From assembly GCA_964576615.1 (NCBI GenBank), contig CAZNUU010000001.1:31309-95308 (forward strand): a DNA stretch of 64,000 bases, in the 5' to 3' direction. The position numbers and the translations under genes were made by a program. Below, piece after piece: positions 14,717-61,487 of this stretch (position 1 is its first letter; every line of letters starts with the position of its first letter). Under the pieces are notes generated by a model. That model made no database searches and was not told the origin of the DNA. It saw nothing but the letters and a program-made list of their open reading frames with translations. The stretch is from an uncultured Candidatus Saccharibacteria bacterium (GTDB taxonomy: Bacteria > Patescibacteriota > Minisyncoccia > Phycocordibacterales > DATDWN01).

Positions 14717-16498
14717 ATGGAAACTATTAGGGAGAAACATACAAATGTTTCAGTTGGACAAATAATTGAAAAATTTTGGCAGAGCACTGGAAGGTATAAG
14801 CCTTGGTTTCTCGTTGCTTTTATCTTCTTTCTACTTGCTCAAGTTGCCACTGTTATAGTACCTATATTTTATAAAAGTTTTTTTGATATTCTCGGAAGTC
14901 ATCCAGACAAAACAGAAGCAGTGAAGAGTTTGATGAGAATAATAGAAATTGTTCTCATTCTGCGACTTACCAACTGGCTTTCCTGGAGAATTGCAATAAA
15001 TATTTATCAAAATATGCAAGCTAGGGTTATGGCTCTTATCAAACAAACTTCTTTTGATTATCTAACGAGCCACTCTTATAGTTTTTTTGCAAATACATTT
15101 GGCGGTAGTCTAGTCCAAAGATTGAATCGTTTCAGTAGAGCGTTTGAAGCGATAACCGACAACATAACTTTTAGTTTACTTCCATTGTTTGTAACAATCA
15201 TTGGTTCAATGATTGCAGTCTATAGGTTTGCACCACTACTCTCTGGGGTATTGGCAATCTGGATAGTAGCATTTGGAGTTTTTAGCGTGTCGTTTTCTCG
15301 TTGGAAGATGAAATATGATTTAATTTCCTCTGAGGCTGATTCGGTAACTACTGGTTATCTTGCAGATGTCATTACTAATAATTCGTCAGTCTCTTTCTTC
15401 ACTGGGCATGAATATGAATCGATCGGATTCAGAGAAGTAACAGATGATCAGACCAAGAAGACATTATATTCATGGAAACTTGGTGATATAACTGATGCAG
15501 TTCAAATGTTCTTACTCATCCTAGTAGAGTTTTTTATCTTTTATTACGCAATTAAATTTTGGTCACAAGGTCTCATAACAGTTGGTACCTTTGTCTTGGT
15601 CCAGACGTATATTATTTCATTGTCGGGTCAGCTCTGGGGTTTGGGTAAAATTGTTAGAAATTTATACCAAAACATAGCCGAATCTAAGGAAATGGTTGAA
15701 ATCCTAGATACGCCGCATGAAATTAGGGATTTACCAGGAGCCAAACCTATTAAAATAGAAAGTGGCCAAATAGAATTCGATAATGTCACTTTTGGTTTTT
15801 CTAAAGACAGCAAGATAATAAATGATTTTAATCTTAAAATTAAGGGTGGAGAAAAAGTGGCGATTGTCGGTCCAAGTGGTTCAGGCAAGACTACTCTCGT
15901 CAGGCTAATTATGCGAGTTTATGATGTAGGCAAAGGTGCGGTAAAGATTGATGGCCAAAATATTAAAGATATTACTCAAAGTAGTTTGCGTGAAAGTATT
16001 AGTTTTGTGCCACAGGATCCGGTGTTATTTCACAGGACGTTAATGGATAATATCCGATACGGTAGGCGACACGCCACCGACCAAGATGTTATTGCAGCTG
16101 CAAAATTAGCCCATTGTGATGAATTTATCGATAAACTCCCCTTAGGTTACCAGACATATGTGGGGGAAAGAGGAATAAAGTTATCAGGAGGTGAGCGTCA
16201 AAGAGTGGCAATTGCAAGAGCAATATTAAAACACGCACCCATACTAATATTTGATGAAGCTACATCTAGTTTGGATTCGTATTCTGAGCATTTGATTCAG
16301 GATGCATTGGAGAATCTTATGAAAAATTGTACTACCATAGTTATAGCGCACAGATTATCAACTATAAAAAAGATGGACAGAATTATTTCAATGAGGGAAG
16401 GTCAGATCGTCGAGGAAGGTACACACGATGAGCTTACAAGTAAGGAATCTGGTCTCTATAAGAAACTTTGGGATCTACAAAGTGGTGGGTTTTTGTAA
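14717..16498 (+). CDS. ABC exporter, fused TMD-NBD half-transporter with canonical motifs (AT-rich, backbone-like)
   Basis: Walker A GPSGSGKTT. Signature LSGGERQRVAIARA. Walker B ILIFDEATSSLD. H-loop IAHRLSTI. No SD. Confidence 0.85.
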   Translation: METIREKHTNVSVGQIIEKFWQSTGRYKPWFLVAFIFFLLAQVATVIVPIFYKSFFDILGSHPDKTEAVKSLMRIIEIVLILRLTNWLSWRIAINIYQNMQARVMALIKQTSFDYLTSHSYSFFANTFGGSLVQRLNRFSRAFEAITDNITFSLLPLFVTIIGSMIAVYRFAPLLSGVLAIWIVAFGVFSVSFSRWKMKYDLISSEADSVTTGYLADVITNNSSVSFFTGHEYESIGFREVTDDQTKKTLYSWKLGDITDAVQMFLLILVEFFIFYYAIKFWSQGLITVGTFVLVQTYIISLSGQLWGLGKIVRNLYQNIAESKEMVEILDTPHEIRDLPGAKPIKIESGQIEFDNVTFGFSKDSKIINDFNLKIKGGEKVAIVGPSGSGKTTLVRLIMRVYDVGKGAVKIDGQNIKDITQSSLRESISFVPQDPVLFHRTLMDNIRYGRRHATDQDVIAAAKLAHCDEFIDKLPLGYQTYVGERGIKLSGGERQRVAIARAILKHAPILIFDEATSSLDSYSEHLIQDALENLMKNCTTIVIAHRLSTIKKMDRIISMREGQIVEEGTHDELTSKESGLYKKLWDLQSGGFL

Positions 16499-16525
16499 AA
16501 ATAGCTAATTTGATAGTATAGATCT

Positions 16526-17476
16526 ATGAAGAAATCACTACTTTCGGGAGTTCAGCCTTCGGGACGACTACATATTGGAAACTATTTTGGAGCACTAAAG
16601 CAGTTCGTTGACATGCAGAACGATTACAATGCTATCTATATGATTGTGGATTACCATGCCCTCAATTCCGTTCAAGATAAAAAAACAATGTCGGATAATA
16701 TTTTGGGTGTGGCGATGGATTATCTAGCGATCGGTCTTGATCCCCAGAAATCAATAATTTTTAAACAATCTGATGTTTCCGAGCACACCGAACTTTGTTG
16801 GATCTTTGACACTATCACCAGTATGTCCTTTTTGGAAAGAGCTCATGCTTACAAGGACGCCGTGGCCAACAATCGGGAGGCAACCGTCGGACTTTTTAAT
16901 TACCCAATGTTAATGGCGGCAGATATTTTACTTTACGATATTGATGTAGTACCAGTTGGGCAGGACCAAAAACAACATATTGAGTACACGAGGGACACTG
17001 CTCAGAAGTTCAATAACGTTTTCAAAAAGGAAGTTTTCAAATTACCCGATGCAAAGATAATGCCAGAAGTAGCAGTTGTGCCAGGAACAGATGGCAGAAA
17101 AATGTCCAAGAGCTATGGCAACACCATTCCGCTTTTTGCGACAGATGATGAAATAGAAAAAGCTGTGATGTCTATTGTCACGGACTCGAGTGGTGATAGA
17201 CCCGAGAATGTTTACGCAATACATAGACTTTTGAAATCAGAAGAGGAACTCTCATCCTTGTACGAAGAAAATAATGGCAAGTATAAAGTTCTAAAAGAAT
17301 CACTTATTGAAGATTTGAAAAAATTTATCGGACCAATGAGGGAAAAAAGAGAACAATTGGCTGCAGATCCAGATTTTGTACTAGATGTCTTACGTGAGGG
17401 TGGCAAGCGAGCGAAAGTTAAAGCTGAAAAGAAAATGGAGGATGTGAGAGATGCAGTTGGGGTTAAGTTGTACTAA
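16526..17476 (+). CDS. trpS: Tryptophanyl-tRNA synthetase
   Basis: Class I HIGH-type motif (PSGRLHIGNYFGA) and KMSKS (GRKMSKSYGNTIPL). 316 aa, the right length for TrpRS. Confidence 0.75.
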   Translation: MKKSLLSGVQPSGRLHIGNYFGALKQFVDMQNDYNAIYMIVDYHALNSVQDKKTMSDNILGVAMDYLAIGLDPQKSIIFKQSDVSEHTELCWIFDTITSMSFLERAHAYKDAVANNREATVGLFNYPMLMAADILLYDIDVVPVGQDQKQHIEYTRDTAQKFNNVFKKEVFKLPDAKIMPEVAVVPGTDGRKMSKSYGNTIPLFATDDEIEKAVMSIVTDSSGDRPENVYAIHRLLKSEEELSSLYEENNGKYKVLKESLIEDLKKFIGPMREKREQLAADPDFVLDVLREGGKRAKVKAEKKMEDVRDAVGVKLY

Positions 17477-17479
17477 GTG

Positions 17480-17727
17480 TTGGGTTCCTGTATTATAGAG
17501 ATACCTAAGATCCGGATGACACCGGTGAGGTAAGGGAAGAAAGCCCTAAAGCCTGATGGCTCGGGTAAATAGAACCCTCGGACTGCGACGTCGCAGATAA
17601 AAGAGACCCTAAAACATGATAATGTTCGGGTAAACAGGGTGGCACCGCGCTTAGTCGTTGCGAAGCAATTAGACACAAAGTCGCCCCTGCGAATTTATTA
17701 AATTAATGAATTCGGAGGGGCGTTTTT
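17480..17727 (+). promoter_or_regulatory. T-box riboswitch-like leader with intrinsic terminator
   Basis: AGAGA (GA/K-turn-like) motif near the 5' end of a Stem-I-like helix (gggttcc...gaaccc). T-box consensus AAACAGGGTGGCACCGCG at 17632-17649. Terminator CGCCCCTGCGAATT/AATTCGGAGGGGCG plus TTTTTGTTT at 17682-17730, directly upstream of the aaRS gene. Confidence 0.55.
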
Positions 17728-17755: not shown

Positions 17756-19051
17756 ATGATCAAGCGAATTTATAATAAAGAAATTGGCAGTCACGTTGGA
17801 GAAGAGATCTCTGTGGTTGGTTTTGTGCAAACACTTCGGGTCCAAAGTAAGATAATATTTATCGTATCACGAGATGTATCGGGTGTGATTCAAAATGTAA
17901 TTGAGGCATCAAGTCCGGCTTTTGAAGTTGCAAGAAATTTGTCGCTTGAATCAGTTGTTAGAATTACCGGAACAGTCAAGGAATCGAAGCAGGCTCCCGG
18001 TGGTGCGGAAGTGAATGTTTCCAGTATCGAGGTTTTATCAGTTGCAGCACCAGAATTACCGATTCCGGTTGTGATAAAGGGCGGAGATGAAGAAACCGAA
18101 GCGCCCACCAGATTCGATTTTCGTTGGATTGACCTACGTAAACCAGAAAAGACGAAAATATTTGAAGTTTGGACAGAGCTGGAAAAAGGCTTCAGGAAAT
18201 ACTGGAATGAAAATAATTTTATTCAGCTTTATTCACCTAATTTTTTACAGACTCAGTCAGAGTCTGGCGCTGAAGTTTTTACAGTGAATTACTTTGATCG
18301 CAAGGCTTATCTTCCCCAATCACCCCAATTCTACAAACAAATGGGTATGGCATCAGGTTTCGAGAGAGTTTTTATGGTTGGGCCGGTCTTCAGAGCTGAG
18401 CCATCATTTACGACTCGTCATTTAACGGAGTTTACCGGCTGGGACTTTGAAATCTCGTACATTGAAAGTCATAATGATGTTATGGATGAGGAAGAGGGAA
18501 TGATAGTCGAGGGGTTTAAGGCGGTTCTAGAGAAATTTCCAGATATAGGCATAACTGTGCCAGAGAGACCCTTCCCGAGAATTACGATGGTTGAGACAAA
18601 AAAAATTCTTGCTGAAAAAGGTATACCTAGTGGGGAAAATTATGATCTTTCACCAGAGGAAGAAAGAGCAATTAGTGAATATGTGAAAGAAAAGTATAAT
18701 CACGAGTTTGTTTTTATTACCGAGTATCACAAATCCAAAAGTGCGTTTTATCACATGAGGCTTAAGGAGGGAAGTGACCACTCACGACGTGCTGATCTAC
18801 TGTATCGTGGGCTTGAAGTCACCACCTTGGCCCAGCGCGAACATAGGCCGGATATTTTAGTTAAGCAATTAGAAGAGAAGGGAATGTCCCGTGAAGCCCA
18901 CAAGGATTTTATCAATTTCTTCAGTTATGGATGTCCTCCACACGGTGGTGCAGGTATCGGACCAGGAAGGTTTATTATGAAAATCTTGGATTTACCAAAC
19001 GTGAGAGAAGCTACATACCTACCTCGTGATGTTAAGAGATTGAATCCGTAA
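17756..19051 (+). CDS. Class IIb aspartyl/asparaginyl-tRNA synthetase (AspRS/AsnRS family; archaeal-type short form)
   Basis: N-terminal OB anticodon-binding fold. Motif 2 FRAEPSFTTRHLTEFTGWDFE. Motif 3 GCPPHGGAGIGPGRFIM. C-terminal LPRDVKRLNP. The track ORF starts at 17726 inside the terminator T-tract, so the ATG at 17756 is preferred. Confidence 0.75.
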   Translation: MIKRIYNKEIGSHVGEEISVVGFVQTLRVQSKIIFIVSRDVSGVIQNVIEASSPAFEVARNLSLESVVRITGTVKESKQAPGGAEVNVSSIEVLSVAAPELPIPVVIKGGDEETEAPTRFDFRWIDLRKPEKTKIFEVWTELEKGFRKYWNENNFIQLYSPNFLQTQSESGAEVFTVNYFDRKAYLPQSPQFYKQMGMASGFERVFMVGPVFRAEPSFTTRHLTEFTGWDFEISYIESHNDVMDEEEGMIVEGFKAVLEKFPDIGITVPERPFPRITMVETKKILAEKGIPSGENYDLSPEEERAISEYVKEKYNHEFVFITEYHKSKSAFYHMRLKEGSDHSRRADLLYRGLEVTTLAQREHRPDILVKQLEEKGMSREAHKDFINFFSYGCPPHGGAGIGPGRFIMKILDLPNVREATYLPRDVKRLNP

Positions 19052-23325: not shown

Positions 23326-24231
23326 ATGAATAAGGTAGTTATATATTTTGCAGGTGGCACAATGAGAGGAGTGTTCGGGGCCGGTGTAGCTGCTGCTTTT
23401 GAAAAAAATAACATCTATGAAAGAGTCGAAGCTATTTACTGCGCATCTGCCGGCGTGATGACAGCGGCATATTTTATTGCGAGGCAGACTGAATTTGGTG
23501 CCTCTATTTATTGGGAAAACTTAAATAATAGCTTTATTTCGAAAAAGGATTTTGCTATCGGGGTGTGGCAGCGTTTTCAAAGTAAATTTATTAGACATGT
23601 TCCTGACCATAGGCTGCATGATGCAGTGAATATCGACTATCTTATAGATGTCGTAAGGAATAAAAAAATACTTAAAGTTGAAAAAATTCTTTCTCAGAAT
23701 ATACCAATCAATGTAAAACTTTTTAACCTTGATTCACACAGTATTGAATATATTGATGCGCGCCGTCCAGATATCTTTGAGGTTCTAAGGGCGGGATTAA
23801 ATGTTTTTCCTTATGTTCATGAAGTTTCAGTCATTGATAACAAAAAACTTATTGATGCAGCGATAATCGACATTATCGGAGCAGAATTTTTGAGAAAAAA
23901 GCATCCGAATCAAAAAATAATTGTTGTAATGAACGGACAAGTAGACAGAAAGTTACGATACAGAATAAAAAATATCATTGAAGGAAAATTTATGAAATGG
24001 ATGTTTGATGACAATAAATTGTATGAATTGTATGCTCATGCTGAAGATAAACTACAACAGGACCTTCAAATAATTAAATCAGACCCAAATTTTGTGCTAG
24101 TAAAACCAGGTGAGGAAATACCAGTCTTATCACGGACGACAGACAAAGAACGGCTATTATACACATACAATCTTGGTCTCAAGGCTAGTCAGGAGGCTCT
24201 TAAGAAGATTTGGTTCGATACCACGATCTAA
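23326..24231 (+). CDS. Patatin-like phospholipase domain protein
   Basis: Gly-rich oxyanion motif FAGGTMRGVFGAG and GxSxG-like nucleophile YCASAGV. Confidence 0.5.
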   Translation: MNKVVIYFAGGTMRGVFGAGVAAAFEKNNIYERVEAIYCASAGVMTAAYFIARQTEFGASIYWENLNNSFISKKDFAIGVWQRFQSKFIRHVPDHRLHDAVNIDYLIDVVRNKKILKVEKILSQNIPINVKLFNLDSHSIEYIDARRPDIFEVLRAGLNVFPYVHEVSVIDNKKLIDAAIIDIIGAEFLRKKHPNQKIIVVMNGQVDRKLRYRIKNIIEGKFMKWMFDDNKLYELYAHAEDKLQQDLQIIKSDPNFVLVKPGEEIPVLSRTTDKERLLYTYNLGLKASQEALKKIWFDTTI

Positions 24232-24287
24232 GTGATAAATTAGCCATATTTTTGGACATATTTTGGCTATTTAGCTATACTCAAGCA

Positions 24288-26126
24288 ATGTGTGGTATAG
24301 CGGGCATAATTGACCCAAAACTGGCCAAAAAGGACAAGATTATAGGCAATATGGTCAAGGTAATAACTTACCGGGGGCCAGATGATGATGGCTATTTTGT
24401 CGACAAACACGTGGGTCTAGGCATGAGGAGACTCGCGATTATTGACCTCAAAACTGGTAGGCAGCCTATAACTTCTCACGACGAAAAACTCCTCATTTTT
24501 TTTAATGGCGAAATCTATAATTATCAAGATTTACGACTTGAGCTGGTAAAAAAGGGCTACGAGTTTAAGACTAACTCTGACACAGAAACTATTTTGCATT
24601 TATATGAGGAGTATGGAGAAAAAATGTTGCCAAAACTACGCGGTATGTTTACTTTTTGTATCTACGATACAGAGAAAAAAGAGATTTTTCTAGCTAGAGA
24701 TTTTTTCGGCATAAAACCACTTTATTACCTTACAGAGGGGGAGAGAATAACGGCTTTTTCATCCGAAATAAAAAGTTTTCTAACTATTCCAGGGTTTAAG
24801 TCAGAGATAAATGATTCAGCGATTTATAATTATCTCTCATTTCAATACAATCCACTCACCGAGACTTTCTGGAAAGGTGTTTATAAATTACCACCCGCAC
24901 ATTTTATAAAAATTGATCTGGTTACCAATAAAACAGAAATAAAAAAATATTGGGAGTTCAAATTTGATCCAGAAAATAATTTAGATAGAGAAAAAACAAC
25001 AGAAGAAATATACAGCAGAGTAGAAGACTCCGTGGCACATCACATGATCGCGGACGTTCCGGTCGGGGCTTTCCTTTCGGGCGGAGTCGATTCCAGTGTT
25101 ATCACGACATTAATGCAGAAGGTTCGCGGCGATAAGAAGGTGAAGACATTTACTGTCGGTTTCGATTCCTTAACTGAAGGCAGAGAGTCAAAAGAGACAT
25201 CTGATTTTCTAGAGACAGATCACAAAGAAATAACAGTTACTAAAGACGAGTATTTTGCAGCTCTGGAAGATGCCGTCTACCACTTCGACGAACCAGTTGC
25301 AGATCCCTCAGCAATCGGAATTTATTTTCTAGCGCGTGAGGCCAAAAAGCACGTAAAAGTTGTCCTTTCGGGCGAAGGTTCTGATGAGTTATTTGGTGGA
25401 TACAATATTTATCTTGCCCCATATTCGAGCGGCAAGCTTGCTTGGCTACCAAAGTTCTTAACCAAACTTGTTTTATCCTTGCCTTTTGAATTTACTGGGA
25501 AAAACTACCTAAAAAGAGTTCACCTGAAATTGGAAGACTGGTATTTTGGCCAGAAATATTTTAATCAATCTATATTTGATAGATCAGAAATTGAAAAAAT
25601 GTGGAAGGGGCAAGGACAGAAATTTATGTCGTTAAAATCATTGTATAAGCCAACAGAAGAATTATCTGATTCCACAAAGATGCAATATGCAGATATAAAT
25701 ACCTGGTTGGTCGGCGATATTTTGGCCAAAGCAGATAAGATGACCATGGCTCATTCTCTAGAACTTCGAGTGCCTTTTTTAGACAAAGAAGTGGCTAAAA
25801 TAGCAGCAATTTTGCCGGATAAGTTCAAATGGGAGAGGGAAGTGACAAAATACATATTTCGAGAGGCATTTAGGAATATTATTCCCGAATCAACCAGGAA
25901 TCGAAAAAAACTTGGATTTCCGACACCAATAAGATCATGGCTTAATCAAGATAGTACACAGGTGTATAACACGATCTTAGAGAATACATACATAAAAGAA
26001 AATTTAAATGTTAACTATATTCAGAAATTAATCGACAACCATGTCTCAAAAAAAGAGGATAATTCCAGGAAAATATATACGCTCCTCATGCTTGCTTTGT
26101 GGTACAATGTTTTTATAGAAAAATGA
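24288..26126 (+). CDS. asnB: Asparagine synthetase (glutamine-hydrolysing)
   Basis: N-terminal nucleophile MCGIAGI (start taken at this Met). PP-loop FLSGGVDSS. About 613 aa. Confidence 0.8.
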   Translation: MCGIAGIIDPKLAKKDKIIGNMVKVITYRGPDDDGYFVDKHVGLGMRRLAIIDLKTGRQPITSHDEKLLIFFNGEIYNYQDLRLELVKKGYEFKTNSDTETILHLYEEYGEKMLPKLRGMFTFCIYDTEKKEIFLARDFFGIKPLYYLTEGERITAFSSEIKSFLTIPGFKSEINDSAIYNYLSFQYNPLTETFWKGVYKLPPAHFIKIDLVTNKTEIKKYWEFKFDPENNLDREKTTEEIYSRVEDSVAHHMIADVPVGAFLSGGVDSSVITTLMQKVRGDKKVKTFTVGFDSLTEGRESKETSDFLETDHKEITVTKDEYFAALEDAVYHFDEPVADPSAIGIYFLAREAKKHVKVVLSGEGSDELFGGYNIYLAPYSSGKLAWLPKFLTKLVLSLPFEFTGKNYLKRVHLKLEDWYFGQKYFNQSIFDRSEIEKMWKGQGQKFMSLKSLYKPTEELSDSTKMQYADINTWLVGDILAKADKMTMAHSLELRVPFLDKEVAKIAAILPDKFKWEREVTKYIFREAFRNIIPESTRNRKKLGFPTPIRSWLNQDSTQVYNTILENTYIKENLNVNYIQKLIDNHVSKKEDNSRKIYTLLMLALWYNVFIEK

Positions 26127-58607: not shown

Positions 58608-61487
58608 TTATAAAACAAAATTAACAAGGCGATTCTTAACAAATATAGTCTTTTTTATTTCCTTATTTTGCAGCCATTTTTCAATATCCGGTAGTGCCTT
58701 AGCGAGTGAAGCCACTACCTCCTCGGTCTCATCTATTTTTACTTTAAGCTCAGCTCTGACTCTGCTGTTAACCTGAACCGCAATAGTAACCTCTTGGGAT
58801 TTTAATTTTGATTTGTCGGCTTGCGGCCAAGATTCATTGACCAATAGTGACTTATTACCAACTCTTTGCCATAGCTCCGAGGTAGAGTGCGGCGCAAATG
58901 GGCAGAGTAGTTTTAAGAACATTTCAAAATCCTTAACACTTACTTTTTCAGTTTTTTCCATTTCATTTAGAAGTATCATCATAGATGAGACGGCTGTATT
59001 AAAAGACATTGTTTCTATATCGGAAGTTACTTTCTCTATGGTCCGATGAAGTAGTGAGTCAAATTTCTCTGAGGATTTTTTGCTATTGGCCTGTAAAATT
59101 CTATCTGAAATTCTCCAAACTCTTTCTAAAAATCTCCTGACTCCTAAGATATTTTCATCCCCCCACATTGCCGCTTGGCCAAATGGACCAATGAACATTT
59201 CATAGAGCCTAAGCGAATCCGCTCCATAAGTTTTTACAATGTCATCCGGATTTATCACGTTCCCAAATCTCTTTGACATTTTTCTGCCATCCGAAGCGTG
59301 TATTAGTCCAACATTTTGAAGTCTCTGGAACGGCTCTTTGGTAGAAACGACACCAATATCATAGAGAAACTTATGCCAAAATCTCGCATAAATTAGGTGC
59401 CTGGTTGCATGCTCTGCCCCACCCACATAAAGATCGACCGTGTTCCAGTATTTTTCCTTTTTCTTATCAACTAGAGCCTTGTTGTTGTTCGGATCCATAT
59501 ATCTTAAGTAATACCAAGAAGAACCGGCCCACTGCGGCATGGTATTAGATTCCCGTCTCAACATTTTTTTGCCGACCTTATAGTTTATCCAACCTGGAAT
59601 ACTAGCTAGGGGCGATTCCGCTGTACCGGTTGGTTCGTATGATTTAACCTGAGGTAATTTGACTGGCAAATCTCTCTCCGGCACAGGAATGACTTTGTGT
59701 TTTAGAACTTCTATCTTGGCATTTTTAACCCCCAGTTCGTCGTCGAATAAGACAGGTATAGGTTCCCCCCAATATCTTTGCCTAGAAAACACCCAGTCAC
59801 GAAGCTTGTATTTCGTTACCCACTTGCCCTTTACAGACTTTGTAATATCTCTTTTGACTTTATCCGAGTCGAGACTTGAAAATTTTCCAGAATTAATGAG
59901 CACACCGTTACCAGTAAATGTTTTTCCTTCTTTTAGTAATAAATCGAGCGCATATTGATGAGTTTGGGCACTCAAACTTTTTCGAAGCTCGCTTGTTGTT
60001 TGCCAAGTTATTTCGTGAGTATCATTTTCTTCGTTTGATATCTCCTCTTTCTTTGGATCTTTCAATTTGAAAACGAGAATGTGCGCATCTACAAGTTTAT
60101 TTGTCTTCTTTGGGACATGATAAAAAAGCCCATGAACCTTACCCAGTTCATTCACATATTCCAAATTTAAATAACCGGTCTCTTCTTTTATCTCTCTAAT
60201 TGCCGTCTCTTTGGGATTTTCTTTCTCTATTGTTCCAGTTAAAAGCGTAGTCCATGCAACCTTTTTCCACTTAAGTGCAACGTATTTGTCATCCTTCCAG
60301 TGCTTTACAAAAGTTATTACTCCCGGCCTCCTTAGTATCGGCTCCTCTTTTCTGTAGGCCCCAGGCTCATAGTCTTGGATAAAAAGTGGTTCAATTACTT
60401 GCTTGACTTGTAAATTATACTTCTCTGCAAATTCTCCATCTCGTTCATCATGCGCAGGGACAGCCATAATTGCACCTGTACCATAGGTAGCTAGAACATA
60501 ATCCGCGATCCAAATTGGAATTTTTTCTTTATTTGCCGGATTGATTGCAAATATTCCTTTTGCTTCCACTCCGGTTTTTTCCTTACCCTCTGCAGTTCTT
60601 TCAATTTCTGGTTTATTTTTTACACTTTCCAAATAATTTTGAATTTCTTTTTTATTTTCAATTTGATCCCATAATTCCTTTATGATCTTATGCTCTGGTG
60701 CAAGAACAACATAAGTTGCACCAAAGATCGTATCGGGCCTAGTGGTGAAAATTTTTATACTTTGGGGATTTTTAGAAACCTCAAAATCTATCTCCGCTCC
60801 CTCCGAGCGCCCGATCCAATTTCTCTGGCTTTCCTTTATAGATTCCGGCCAGTCCAATAAACTAAGGTCTTCCAGCATTCGATCTGCATACTTAGTAATA
60901 GCTAAAACCCATTGGCGAATAGGTCTTTTCTCAACCGTTGCGCCACATCTTTCACACTTGCCATTTTCGACGTCTTCGTTAGCTAAAATAGTTTTATCCA
61001 CCGGACACCAGTTCACAGGTTCGTTCGATTCATATGCTAGGCCGTGCTCCAGGAGTTTCAAAAATATCCACTGCGTCCATTTGTAAAACTTTGGGTCAGT
61101 TGTATTTACTTCGCGCGACCAGTCATAATCCAGACCAATAATCTCAAGTTGTTTTTTATATCGTGCGACATTTTTTGCCACGGCAACTGCCGGGTTGGTC
61201 TTTGTTTGGATCGCATAGTTCTCCGCTGGCAGTCCAAACGCATCAAAGCCCATCGGGTGAAGCACATTAAACCCCTGCATCCTTTTCATACGCGAAATTA
61301 TGTCGGTAGCAATATAACCCTTGGGGTGACCAACATGAAGTCCCTCACCCGAGGGGTAAGGAAACATATCAAGAATGTAGTATTTTTTCTTTTTTGAACC
61401 GGGCTCTTCAGTTTTAAAAGCCTTACTTTTGGCCCAAATAGATTGCCATTTTTTCTCAATAGCTGAGTGATTATACTCGCTTTTCAT
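58608..61487 (-). CDS. leuS: Leucyl-tRNA synthetase with inserted Nudix-hydrolase domain and reduced CP1 region
   Basis: HVGH (HIGH) and KMSKR motifs. LeuRS blocks TTRPDT, GTGAIMAVPAHDERDGEFA and RDWVFSRQRYWGEPIP. A Nudix box ETAIREIKEETGY and about 150 aa of Nudix fold lie between them (aa about 375-520). Confidence 0.85.
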   Translation of the reverse strand: MKSEYNHSAIEKKWQSIWAKSKAFKTEEPGSKKKKYYILDMFPYPSGEGLHVGHPKGYIATDIISRMKRMQGFNVLHPMGFDAFGLPAENYAIQTKTNPAVAVAKNVARYKKQLEIIGLDYDWSREVNTTDPKFYKWTQWIFLKLLEHGLAYESNEPVNWCPVDKTILANEDVENGKCERCGATVEKRPIRQWVLAITKYADRMLEDLSLLDWPESIKESQRNWIGRSEGAEIDFEVSKNPQSIKIFTTRPDTIFGATYVVLAPEHKIIKELWDQIENKKEIQNYLESVKNKPEIERTAEGKEKTGVEAKGIFAINPANKEKIPIWIADYVLATYGTGAIMAVPAHDERDGEFAEKYNLQVKQVIEPLFIQDYEPGAYRKEEPILRRPGVITFVKHWKDDKYVALKWKKVAWTTLLTGTIEKENPKETAIREIKEETGYLNLEYVNELGKVHGLFYHVPKKTNKLVDAHILVFKLKDPKKEEISNEENDTHEITWQTTSELRKSLSAQTHQYALDLLLKEGKTFTGNGVLINSGKFSSLDSDKVKRDITKSVKGKWVTKYKLRDWVFSRQRYWGEPIPVLFDDELGVKNAKIEVLKHKVIPVPERDLPVKLPQVKSYEPTGTAESPLASIPGWINYKVGKKMLRRESNTMPQWAGSSWYYLRYMDPNNNKALVDKKKEKYWNTVDLYVGGAEHATRHLIYARFWHKFLYDIGVVSTKEPFQRLQNVGLIHASDGRKMSKRFGNVINPDDIVKTYGADSLRLYEMFIGPFGQAAMWGDENILGVRRFLERVWRISDRILQANSKKSSEKFDSLLHRTIEKVTSDIETMSFNTAVSSMMILLNEMEKTEKVSVKDFEMFLKLLCPFAPHSTSELWQRVGNKSLLVNESWPQADKSKLKSQEVTIAVQVNSRVRAELKVKIDETEEVVASLAKALPDIEKWLQNKEIKKTIFVKNRLVNFVL

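Follow-up and report, generated by a model that had tools for sequence, protein, structure and literature searches.

The window (the whole 64 kb stretch of DNA that was analysed) carries a trpS gene followed by an aspS gene, and the gap of 279 nt between them holds a T-box leader of the rare short-stem type, at window positions 17503-17727. The two genes flanking the leader are as follows:

16526..17476, plus strand: trpS, the upstream neighbour (TIGR00233, 286 bits), given for context only and not under the T-box
17756..19051, plus strand: aspS, the gene predicted to be regulated, 431 aa, encoding a non-discriminating archaeal-type aspartyl-tRNA synthetase (aspartate--tRNA(Asn) ligase)

The aspS product is a class IIb, archaeal-type AspRS that matches NCBIfam NF003483 at 449.4 bits (cutoff 353), and 431-aa homologues in Paceibacterota match it in length. 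An AspRS/AsnRS gene of class IIb had been proposed at this position in the original prediction; the class stands, and the enzyme can be named more specifically as an aspartate--tRNA(Asn) ligase of archaeal type. The host was likewise correctly anticipated to be CPR-like, since the best protein matches of the AspRS, as well as the related loci, come from Candidatus Paceibacterota / Patescibacteria metagenome-assembled genomes (MAGs). The start codon of aspS is the ATG at 17756, which lies 29 nt beyond the U-tract of the leader and has no Shine-Dalgarno (SD) sequence; an in-frame TTG at 17726, offered as the start by the open reading frame list, was rejected as spurious in favour of this ATG. 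SD-like motifs were found at 3 of the 35 genes in the window, compared with a background of 10.6%, and the genome, judged on these 35 genes, is without SD motifs, as had been suggested. Among the five aminoacyl-tRNA synthetase genes in the window, aspS is the only one with a T-box leader; the other four, trpS, gltX, alaS, and leuS, which the original prediction had suggested checking for T-boxes across the genome, have no leader space and no T-box in the window.

The T-box is the sole meaningful Rfam family match for the leader. A permissive scan with the Rfam T-box model (RF00230) gave a match of 30.6 bits spanning model positions 1-219, the gathering score being 93, with an E-value of 3.6e-5 locally and 0.0058 over the whole window; a search at the gathering threshold reported no T-box in the window. 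The Rfam alignment skips 72 model positions of Stem I and accommodates 30 extra nt in the antiterminator loop, and the shortfall in score (30.6 versus 93 bits) is due to these absent Stem I positions and to the insertion in helix A2. Sister leaders scored 29-46 bits in the same scan or were not reported at all. These sisters come from a comparison set of 160 aspS loci from genomes and metagenomes plus a few nearest relatives, in which the design seen in the window is common to 12 other Patescibacteria aspS leaders (L003, L012, L014, L017, L018, L020, L022, L031, L088, L093, L107, and L109). One of these, L093, was missed by a regular expression for the T-box core on account of its bulge (UGGCAAC) and was recovered with a 98-position aptamer model. 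Covariation was judged on module-level alignments; MAFFT lost register in the pseudoknot region, and the helix strands there were parsed by hand, a partly subjective step.

The 5' part of the leader consists of a putative promoter element and a very short Stem I:

17491..17496, plus strand: putative -10 box TATTAT, 6 nt before Stem I
17503..17531, plus strand: Stem I, very short (29 nt), from Rfam alignment, covariation, and RNAalifold
17503-05 / 17529-31, plus strand: Stem I C-stem, ACC / GGU
17506-08, plus strand: K-turn bulge UAA of Stem I, with tandem G.A pairs formed by GA 17509-10 / GA 17527-28
17511 / 17526, plus strand: U.U of Stem I, with a 4-bp stem CCGG 17512-15 / CCGG 17522-25
17516..17521, plus strand: apical specifier loop AUGACA, with the specifier GAC (Asp) at 17518-17520 and the conserved purine A at 17521

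In seven of nine leaders, the end of a -10-like hexamer lies 6-10 nt ahead of the first Stem I nucleotide, and the putative box in the window suggests a transcript start at about 17502-17503, at the base of Stem I. A generic promoter and terminator scan of the window called neither this box nor the terminator described below; the terminator was missed because its 3-nt loop in a very long stem falls outside the rules of the scan. Stem I covaries among nine leaders, with 93.7% of cells paired, compensatory changes in six of seven pairs, and none of 500 shuffles as good, while RNAalifold on five aptamer domains independently yielded Stem I together with the long-range lower helix of Stem II. The K-turn is kept in nine leaders as a sequence pattern (C-stem, 3-nt bulge, tandem GA/GA); L020 and L012 do not have it. 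The GA motif had earlier been assigned to AGAGA, but that sequence (17497-17501) is 5' of Stem I and near the probable transcript start, and the GA nucleotides of the K-turn are those paired across Stem I.

The predicted specifier is GAC, sensing tRNA-Asp. The loop sequence GACA is invariant among the nine aligned short-Stem-I leaders, in which the loop is 6 nt long in six and 7-8 nt long in three; L012 has GAC followed by G at the specifier position. The gene 3' of every such leader is an archaeal-type aspS, and all leaders but L093 carry GAC and a purine. In L093, Stem I reads CCGG-CAAACG-CCGG, which places AAC-G (Asn) in register with GAC-A, and the gene that follows is again an aspartate--tRNA(Asn) ligase (478.6 and 395.1 bits, both over cutoff), 59% identical to the window protein. 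The Asn specifier of L093 in place of Asp, a natural exchange, supports the position assigned to the specifier, and the GAC/AAC pair would fit the HMM-based call of an enzyme serving both tRNA-Asp and tRNA-Asn. A scan for tRNA genes in the window and 58 loci found no tRNA-Asp. The loop could in principle be read in another frame, with ACA (Thr) or AUG (Met) as the specifier and a different tRNA as the ligand. Within the GACA loops ACA is as invariant as GAC, and in the +1 frame of L093 ACA becomes ACG, both of them Thr codons, such that Thr is not excluded by L093. We nevertheless regard another frame as highly improbable: the gene is aspS every time, GAC or AAC has a purine after it in every leader whereas ACA is followed by either C or A, the L093 loop CAAACG keeps the Asp/Asn-type codon AAC in the GAC register, and neither UGA nor AUG is conserved, L018 and L109 having the loop CAGACA. 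The UGGC of the antiterminator bulge, furthermore, implies a discriminator base G73, which is typical of tRNA-Asp.

Between Stem I and the T-box sequence lie the following elements:

17533..17578, plus strand: Stem II, from own-strand versus cross-sequence pairing and RNAalifold
17533-36 / 17575-78, plus strand: lower helix of Stem II, AGGG / CCCU
17537-42 and 17567-74, plus strand: purine-rich S-turn strands of Stem II, AAGAAA and AAAUAGAA
17543-46 / 17563-66, plus strand: upper helix of Stem II, GCCC / GGGU, with an apical hairpin at 17547-62
17579..17596, plus strand: Stem IIA/B pseudoknot, with IIA formed by CG 17579-80 / CG 17589-90 and IIB by CUGCG 17583-87 / CGCAG 17592-96
17606..17631, plus strand: Stem III, ACCC 17606-09 / GGGU 17628-31 with an inner AACAU/AUGUU hairpin, preceded by a purine run AGAG at 17602-05

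For Stem II, pairing of each leader with its own strand was 100%, compared with 76% (lower helix) and 60% (upper helix) when strands were combined across sequences. A single-sequence minimum free energy (MFE) fold draws three small hairpins in place of the long-range Stem II, but on this point it is overridden by the RNAalifold prediction from the five aptamer domains. Helix IIB is represented by eight different helices in eight leaders, with 36 of 36 paired versus 49% in cross controls. Helix IIA is paired at 25 of 25 versus 90% in cross controls, with little variation, and in the window it is weak, comprising 2 bp only. L014 and L022 appear to be without the S-turn-bearing Stem II domain and the IIA/B elements. 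Stem III, which is present in the MFE fold as well, pairs at 100% on its own strand versus 64% across sequences (eight leaders), and it is lacking in L031.

This arrangement differs from that of the original prediction, in which a long Stem I had an internal specifier loop and a distal platform, with the specifier either AAU-A (Asn) or GAU-G (Asp) on its 3' side. A canonical Stem I of this kind would span approximately 17500-17580, and the K-turn-like start, the purine-rich internal loops, and the MFE hairpins in the region give it a superficial likeness to one. Yet 72 Stem I positions are deleted in the covariance model, the segment at 17533-17578 aligns with the Stem II and S-turn of the sister leaders and covaries as a separate helix, and the distal platform motifs are absent; Stem I has 29 nt and an apical loop. 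Of the two suggested specifiers, AAUA (17568-17571) is part of an S-turn strand of Stem II and is AGUA or ACUA in relatives, and GAUG is actually found at 17555-17558, in the variable apical hairpin of Stem II, which is missing in several relatives. A long Stem I with either specifier is therefore given next to no probability. A sub-threshold covariance score or a missing distal platform had been named in advance as speaking against the T-box. The score is indeed below threshold and the platform is missing, but this excludes only the canonical long-Stem-I type and not the T-box as such. Comparison with the sister leaders identifies the element as a T-box with a short Stem I (Class III-type).

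The 3' part of the leader holds two alternative structures that share a strand:

17632..17689, plus strand: T-box sequence and antiterminator, from Rfam alignment, covariation, and the nascent fold
17635-39 / 17685-89, plus strand: antiterminator helix A1, CAGGG / CCCUG
17640-46, plus strand: 7-nt bulge UGGCACC, in which UGGC (17640-43) is the predicted partner of the tRNA 3' end GCCA
17647-49 / 17682-84, plus strand: antiterminator helix A2, GCG / CGC, with a 32-nt inserted hairpin at 17650-81
17682..17727, plus strand: intrinsic terminator, an 18-bp hairpin at 17682-17722 with one G.G mismatch, then U5 at 17723-27

The T-box sequence, AAACAGGGTGGCACCGCG, can be read directly at 17632-17649, and its core GGTGGCACCGCG occurs once in 64 kb. 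As RNA, this stretch (AAACAGGGUGGCACCGCG) forms the 5' side of the antiterminator, whose bulge is flanked by helices A1 and A2. The antiterminator covaries as well, with 98.8% paired, compensatory changes in five of nine pairs, and none of 500 shuffles as good. The terminator is made up of the arms CGCCCCTGCGAATT (17682-17695) and AATTCGGAGGGGCG (17709-17722) and the TTTTT that follows (17723-17727), and its hairpin has a calculated energy of -26.6 kcal/mol. Its first eight nucleotides (17682-89) double as the antiterminator's 3' strand, so the two folds are mutually exclusive. For nascent RNA up to 17692 the MFE fold is exactly the bulged antiterminator (-16.4 kcal/mol), while for the full-length leader it is the terminator, at -37.2 kcal/mol compared with -25.2 kcal/mol when the antiterminator is forced; the terminator fold is thus 12 kcal/mol more stable in the thermodynamic model. 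The same succession is seen among the relatives, as the nascent MFE fold is the bulged antiterminator in 10 of 11 leaders and the full-length MFE fold is a terminator on the same strand in all 11. The T-box leader with competing antiterminator and terminator that had been predicted here is supported. Both arms and the T-tract of the proposed terminator are present as well, although they belong to the larger 18-bp hairpin and this hairpin does not abut the true ATG at 17756.

Transcription attenuation is the most likely mode of action, given the hairpin and its U5, the position of the ATG 29 nt further on without an SD, the SD-poor genome, and the SD sequences of L107, L109, and L012, which sit outside the hairpin. 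Of 12 leaders, 10 have a GC-rich hairpin with a U-tract (U4-U7); in L014 a U-tract is not clearly present. The same tRNA-Asp aptamer could instead act post-transcriptionally, on translation or mRNA stability, as in the actinobacterial Class III ileS leaders, and the hairpin and U-tract could be incidental or serve mainly to end trpS transcripts. Such a role would accord with the inserted hairpin of A2, which resembles insertions tied to translational T-boxes in a review (PMC7583486), and with the lack of a clear U-tract in L014. It is, however, difficult to reconcile with an alternative hairpin that leaves the ATG uncovered, with a genome in which there is no SD to sequester, with the conservation of hairpin and U-tract, and with the position of the SD-like motifs in the three sister leaders, and we consider it improbable.

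The distribution of these leaders is patchy, as they precede about 13 of approximately 80 Patescibacteria aspS loci. The closest AspRS relatives of the window protein (79-84% identity) are all without the leader, and in L004, L005, and L010 trpS abuts aspS directly; the leader is evidently dispensable in many lineages. When the aptamer model was applied to non-CPR aspS loci, the design was not found, and the sole match there was the Streptomyces locus L044. This patchiness, together with the fact that the 12-mer core is by itself statistically unremarkable if one mismatch is allowed, might point to a decaying relic, or to a chance T-box-like motif next to a trpS terminator, with no riboswitch function. 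Every helix is intact in the window, however, and shuffled versions of the leader fold far less well than the leader itself (z = -5.55). The window also scores 82 bits with the 98-position aptamer model, of which it is itself one seed. Compensatory changes across 9-13 leaders show selection on structure, and the probability left to a relic or a chance resemblance is extremely small.

T-boxes have been divided into four classes, of which Class III is distinguished by a short Stem I without an elbow platform, a penta- or hexanucleotide apical specifier loop, and a required Stem II (PMC10482949). Of the traits by which this class is described, the window has the short Stem I with an apical loop and the Stem II S-turn with IIA/B; the SD-sequestration platform, which is typical of the class and does not define it, is absent (PMC10482949). 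The long Stem I, internal specifier loop, and interdigitated T-loop platform of Classes I and II are absent as well. Window 17503-17727 is very probably a short-Stem-I T-box of Class III architecture for tRNA-Asp(GUC) that controls aspS by transcription attenuation.

We infer the transcript start, the binding of tRNA, the sensing of its charge, and termination by the polymerase of this CPR bacterium, and the predicted sequence of events is as follows. Transcription would begin just upstream of Stem I, whose K-turn would serve to display GAC-A in the 6-nt apical loop. Stem II, by way of its S-turn, would dock beside this loop together with the IIA/B pseudoknot to form an anticodon-binding groove which, by analogy with the solved ileS structures, may compensate for the absent elbow-binding platform. 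Uncharged tRNA-Asp would then pair through its GCCA end with the UGGC of the bulge and so stabilise an otherwise weaker antiterminator, allowing RNA polymerase to read through into aspS. With charged tRNA, or with no tRNA, the terminator would form and transcription would stop at the U-tract.

The predicted coupling of a short Stem I to a terminator is unexpected, as it runs against what has been published. The classification has it that members of Classes III and IV "mostly regulate translation initiation" (PMC10482949), and a review argues that T-boxes acting on transcription as a rule depend on the platform of a long Stem I to catch tRNA quickly (PMC7583486). The searchable literature yielded nothing on T-boxes from CPR/Patescibacteria. 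We lean, by a modest margin, towards the view that the T-boxes of Patescibacteria are a previously unreported lineage of Class III type that acts co-transcriptionally through intrinsic terminators without an elbow platform, in which the specifier in front of the same non-discriminating AspRS changes between Asp and Asn, and which threshold-based Rfam annotation has missed. The whole group of leaders falling under the Rfam threshold constitutes an annotation gap. The short-Stem-I design would then reach beyond actinobacterial ileS, to Asp, to Asn, and to a terminator platform. If true, this would provide a natural test of the kinetic argument that ties Stem I length to regulatory mode, and a natural system in which to ask whether an aptamer consisting only of an anticodon groove binds tRNA quickly enough to control transcription. 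The pairing of this aptamer type with a terminator would, in that case, be accounted for by the absence of SD-dependent initiation. It would also mean that episymbionts with reduced genomes still monitor tRNA charging, for one synthetase. T-boxes in CPR are compatible with a position of CPR among the T-box-bearing lineages of Terrabacteria.

The closest known counterparts are the Class III ileS leaders of Nocardia farcinica and Mycobacterium tuberculosis, for which structures are available (PDB 6UFM, 6UFG; cited in PMC7583486). Compared on the basis of published descriptions, the window resembles them in its short K-turn Stem I without a platform and in its hexanucleotide loop with a purine, and both have a Stem II loop-E/S-turn (..UAGA..), a IIA/B pseudoknot, a Stem III, and a UGGN bulge. 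Insertions in helix A2 are also seen in the ileS leaders. Given a transcript start at 17503, the specifier would occupy +16 to +18 in the window, as in N. farcinica (C18, A19), and the aptamer domain comprises 94 nt, as compared to nucleotides 1-98 in N. farcinica. The N. farcinica S-turn (G67-U-A69-G70-A71) is matched by UAGA in the 3' S-turn strand of the window, where the dispensable bulged G is an A (PMC7583486). The differences are that the ileS leaders carry the specifier AUC (Ile) on ileS in Actinobacteria, whereas those described here carry GAC (AAC in L093) on aspS in Patescibacteria; that an SD sequestrator there is replaced by an intrinsic terminator and U-tract in the window; and that helix IIA has just 2 bp in the window.

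With Class I T-boxes of the Bacillus subtilis tyrS type, the window leader has in common the T-box, the 7-nt bulge, the K-turn, the S-turn Stem II, IIA/B, and Stem III, as well as the competition between antiterminator and terminator and a predicted control by transcription attenuation. The long Stem I, the internal specifier loop, and the distal double T-loop platform of Class I are absent from the window.

T-box leaders on the same gene family were also found at archaeal-type aspS paralogues of Streptomyces (L035-L037, L042, L044, L048, L053, L057, and L139), whose products are 43-47% identical. Their specifier context (..GAA-GAC-C..) and their UGGC or UGGU bulge are like the GAC and UGGC of the window. 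They differ in what looks like a long Stem I (76 bits with the Rfam model for L035) and high GC content, and no obvious U-tract terminator was seen on reading their sequences.

In Clostridium acetobutylicum, the non-discriminating AspRS / GatCAB route is reportedly controlled by T-boxes (Saad et al., JBC 2012 and PNAS 2013); these elements of a member of the Firmicutes are said to be transcriptional T-boxes with a long Stem I. There, as in the window, a T-box stands over a non-discriminating AspRS pathway, and L093 exhibits an Asn specifier on such a gene. The window element, in contrast, is predicted to read tRNA-Asp and not tRNA-Asn.

Variation at the specifier was found in L093, another Patescibacteria sister leader (L093:1182-1460), in which AAC (Asn) replaces GAC at the apical-loop specifier position; the gene that follows encodes a non-discriminating AspRS. 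The L093 specifier is a natural Asp-to-Asn swap; the T-box bulge of this leader reads UGGCAAC.

Other sister leaders vary in structure. L014:2298-2477 and L022:2301-2488 are short-Stem-I aspS leaders that apparently lack both the IIA/B pseudoknot and a Stem II with an S-turn, and seem to have simple hairpins at these positions; L014 also has no clear U-tract. One leader of this pair comes from a complete 945-kb chromosome labeled Saccharibacteria. The two could be a still more minimal T-box variant. The GA/GA K-turn pattern is absent from the short Stem I of L020:966-1117 and L012:2311-2484, and L012 has a larger Stem I loop (AUUUGUGACGG), in which GAC is followed by G. The antiterminator varies as well, and in the window it carries the following insertion:

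17650-17681: 32-nt hairpin insertion, antiterminator helix A2 (apical loop)

Comparable A2 insertions are present in L088, L022, and L107, with 3-nt loops instead in L003 and L031. Such insertions are frequent in translational T-boxes (PMC7583486).

The order ABC transporter, trpS, aspS, scpA/scpB is kept within the clade (window 14717-17476; L004, L005, L010, L031, L161, and L165). Only some members of this clade have the T-box leader, and in those that do not, trpS abuts or overlaps aspS.

Upstream of start codons in the window, SD-like motifs were not enriched (3 of 35 ORFs, against a background of 10.6%), and TATAAT-like boxes lie ~5-12 nt from several starts, including 3333, 16526, and, on the (-) strand, 37954, 42783, and 35365. 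These sequence patterns suggest that leaderless mRNAs are widespread.

Three other genes in the window were noted:

2455-2527, (-) strand: tRNA-Glu(CUC), the sole tRNA gene in the window
24210-26126, (+) strand: glutamine-hydrolysing asparagine synthase, AsnB type (Asn_synthase, 325 bits)
58608-61487, (-) strand: leucyl-tRNA synthetase ORF, 958 aa

The asparagine synthase gene, found 5 kb beyond the non-discriminating aspS in the downstream direction, is relevant to the organism's source of Asn and Asn-tRNA. The leucyl-tRNA synthetase has a NUDIX hydrolase domain match (residues 410-506, E = 1.6e-11) directly C-terminal to its editing domain (residues 221-367), an unusual insertion.

T-box leaders also precede archaeal-type AspRS paralogues of Streptomyces (L035:2214-2446, L036, L037, L042, L044, L048, L053, L057, and L139). 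L035 scored 76 bits by Rfam, still under the gathering score of 93. These Streptomyces leaders have a long Stem I, with the specifier in the context ..GAA-GAC-C.. and a bulge of UGGC or UGGU.
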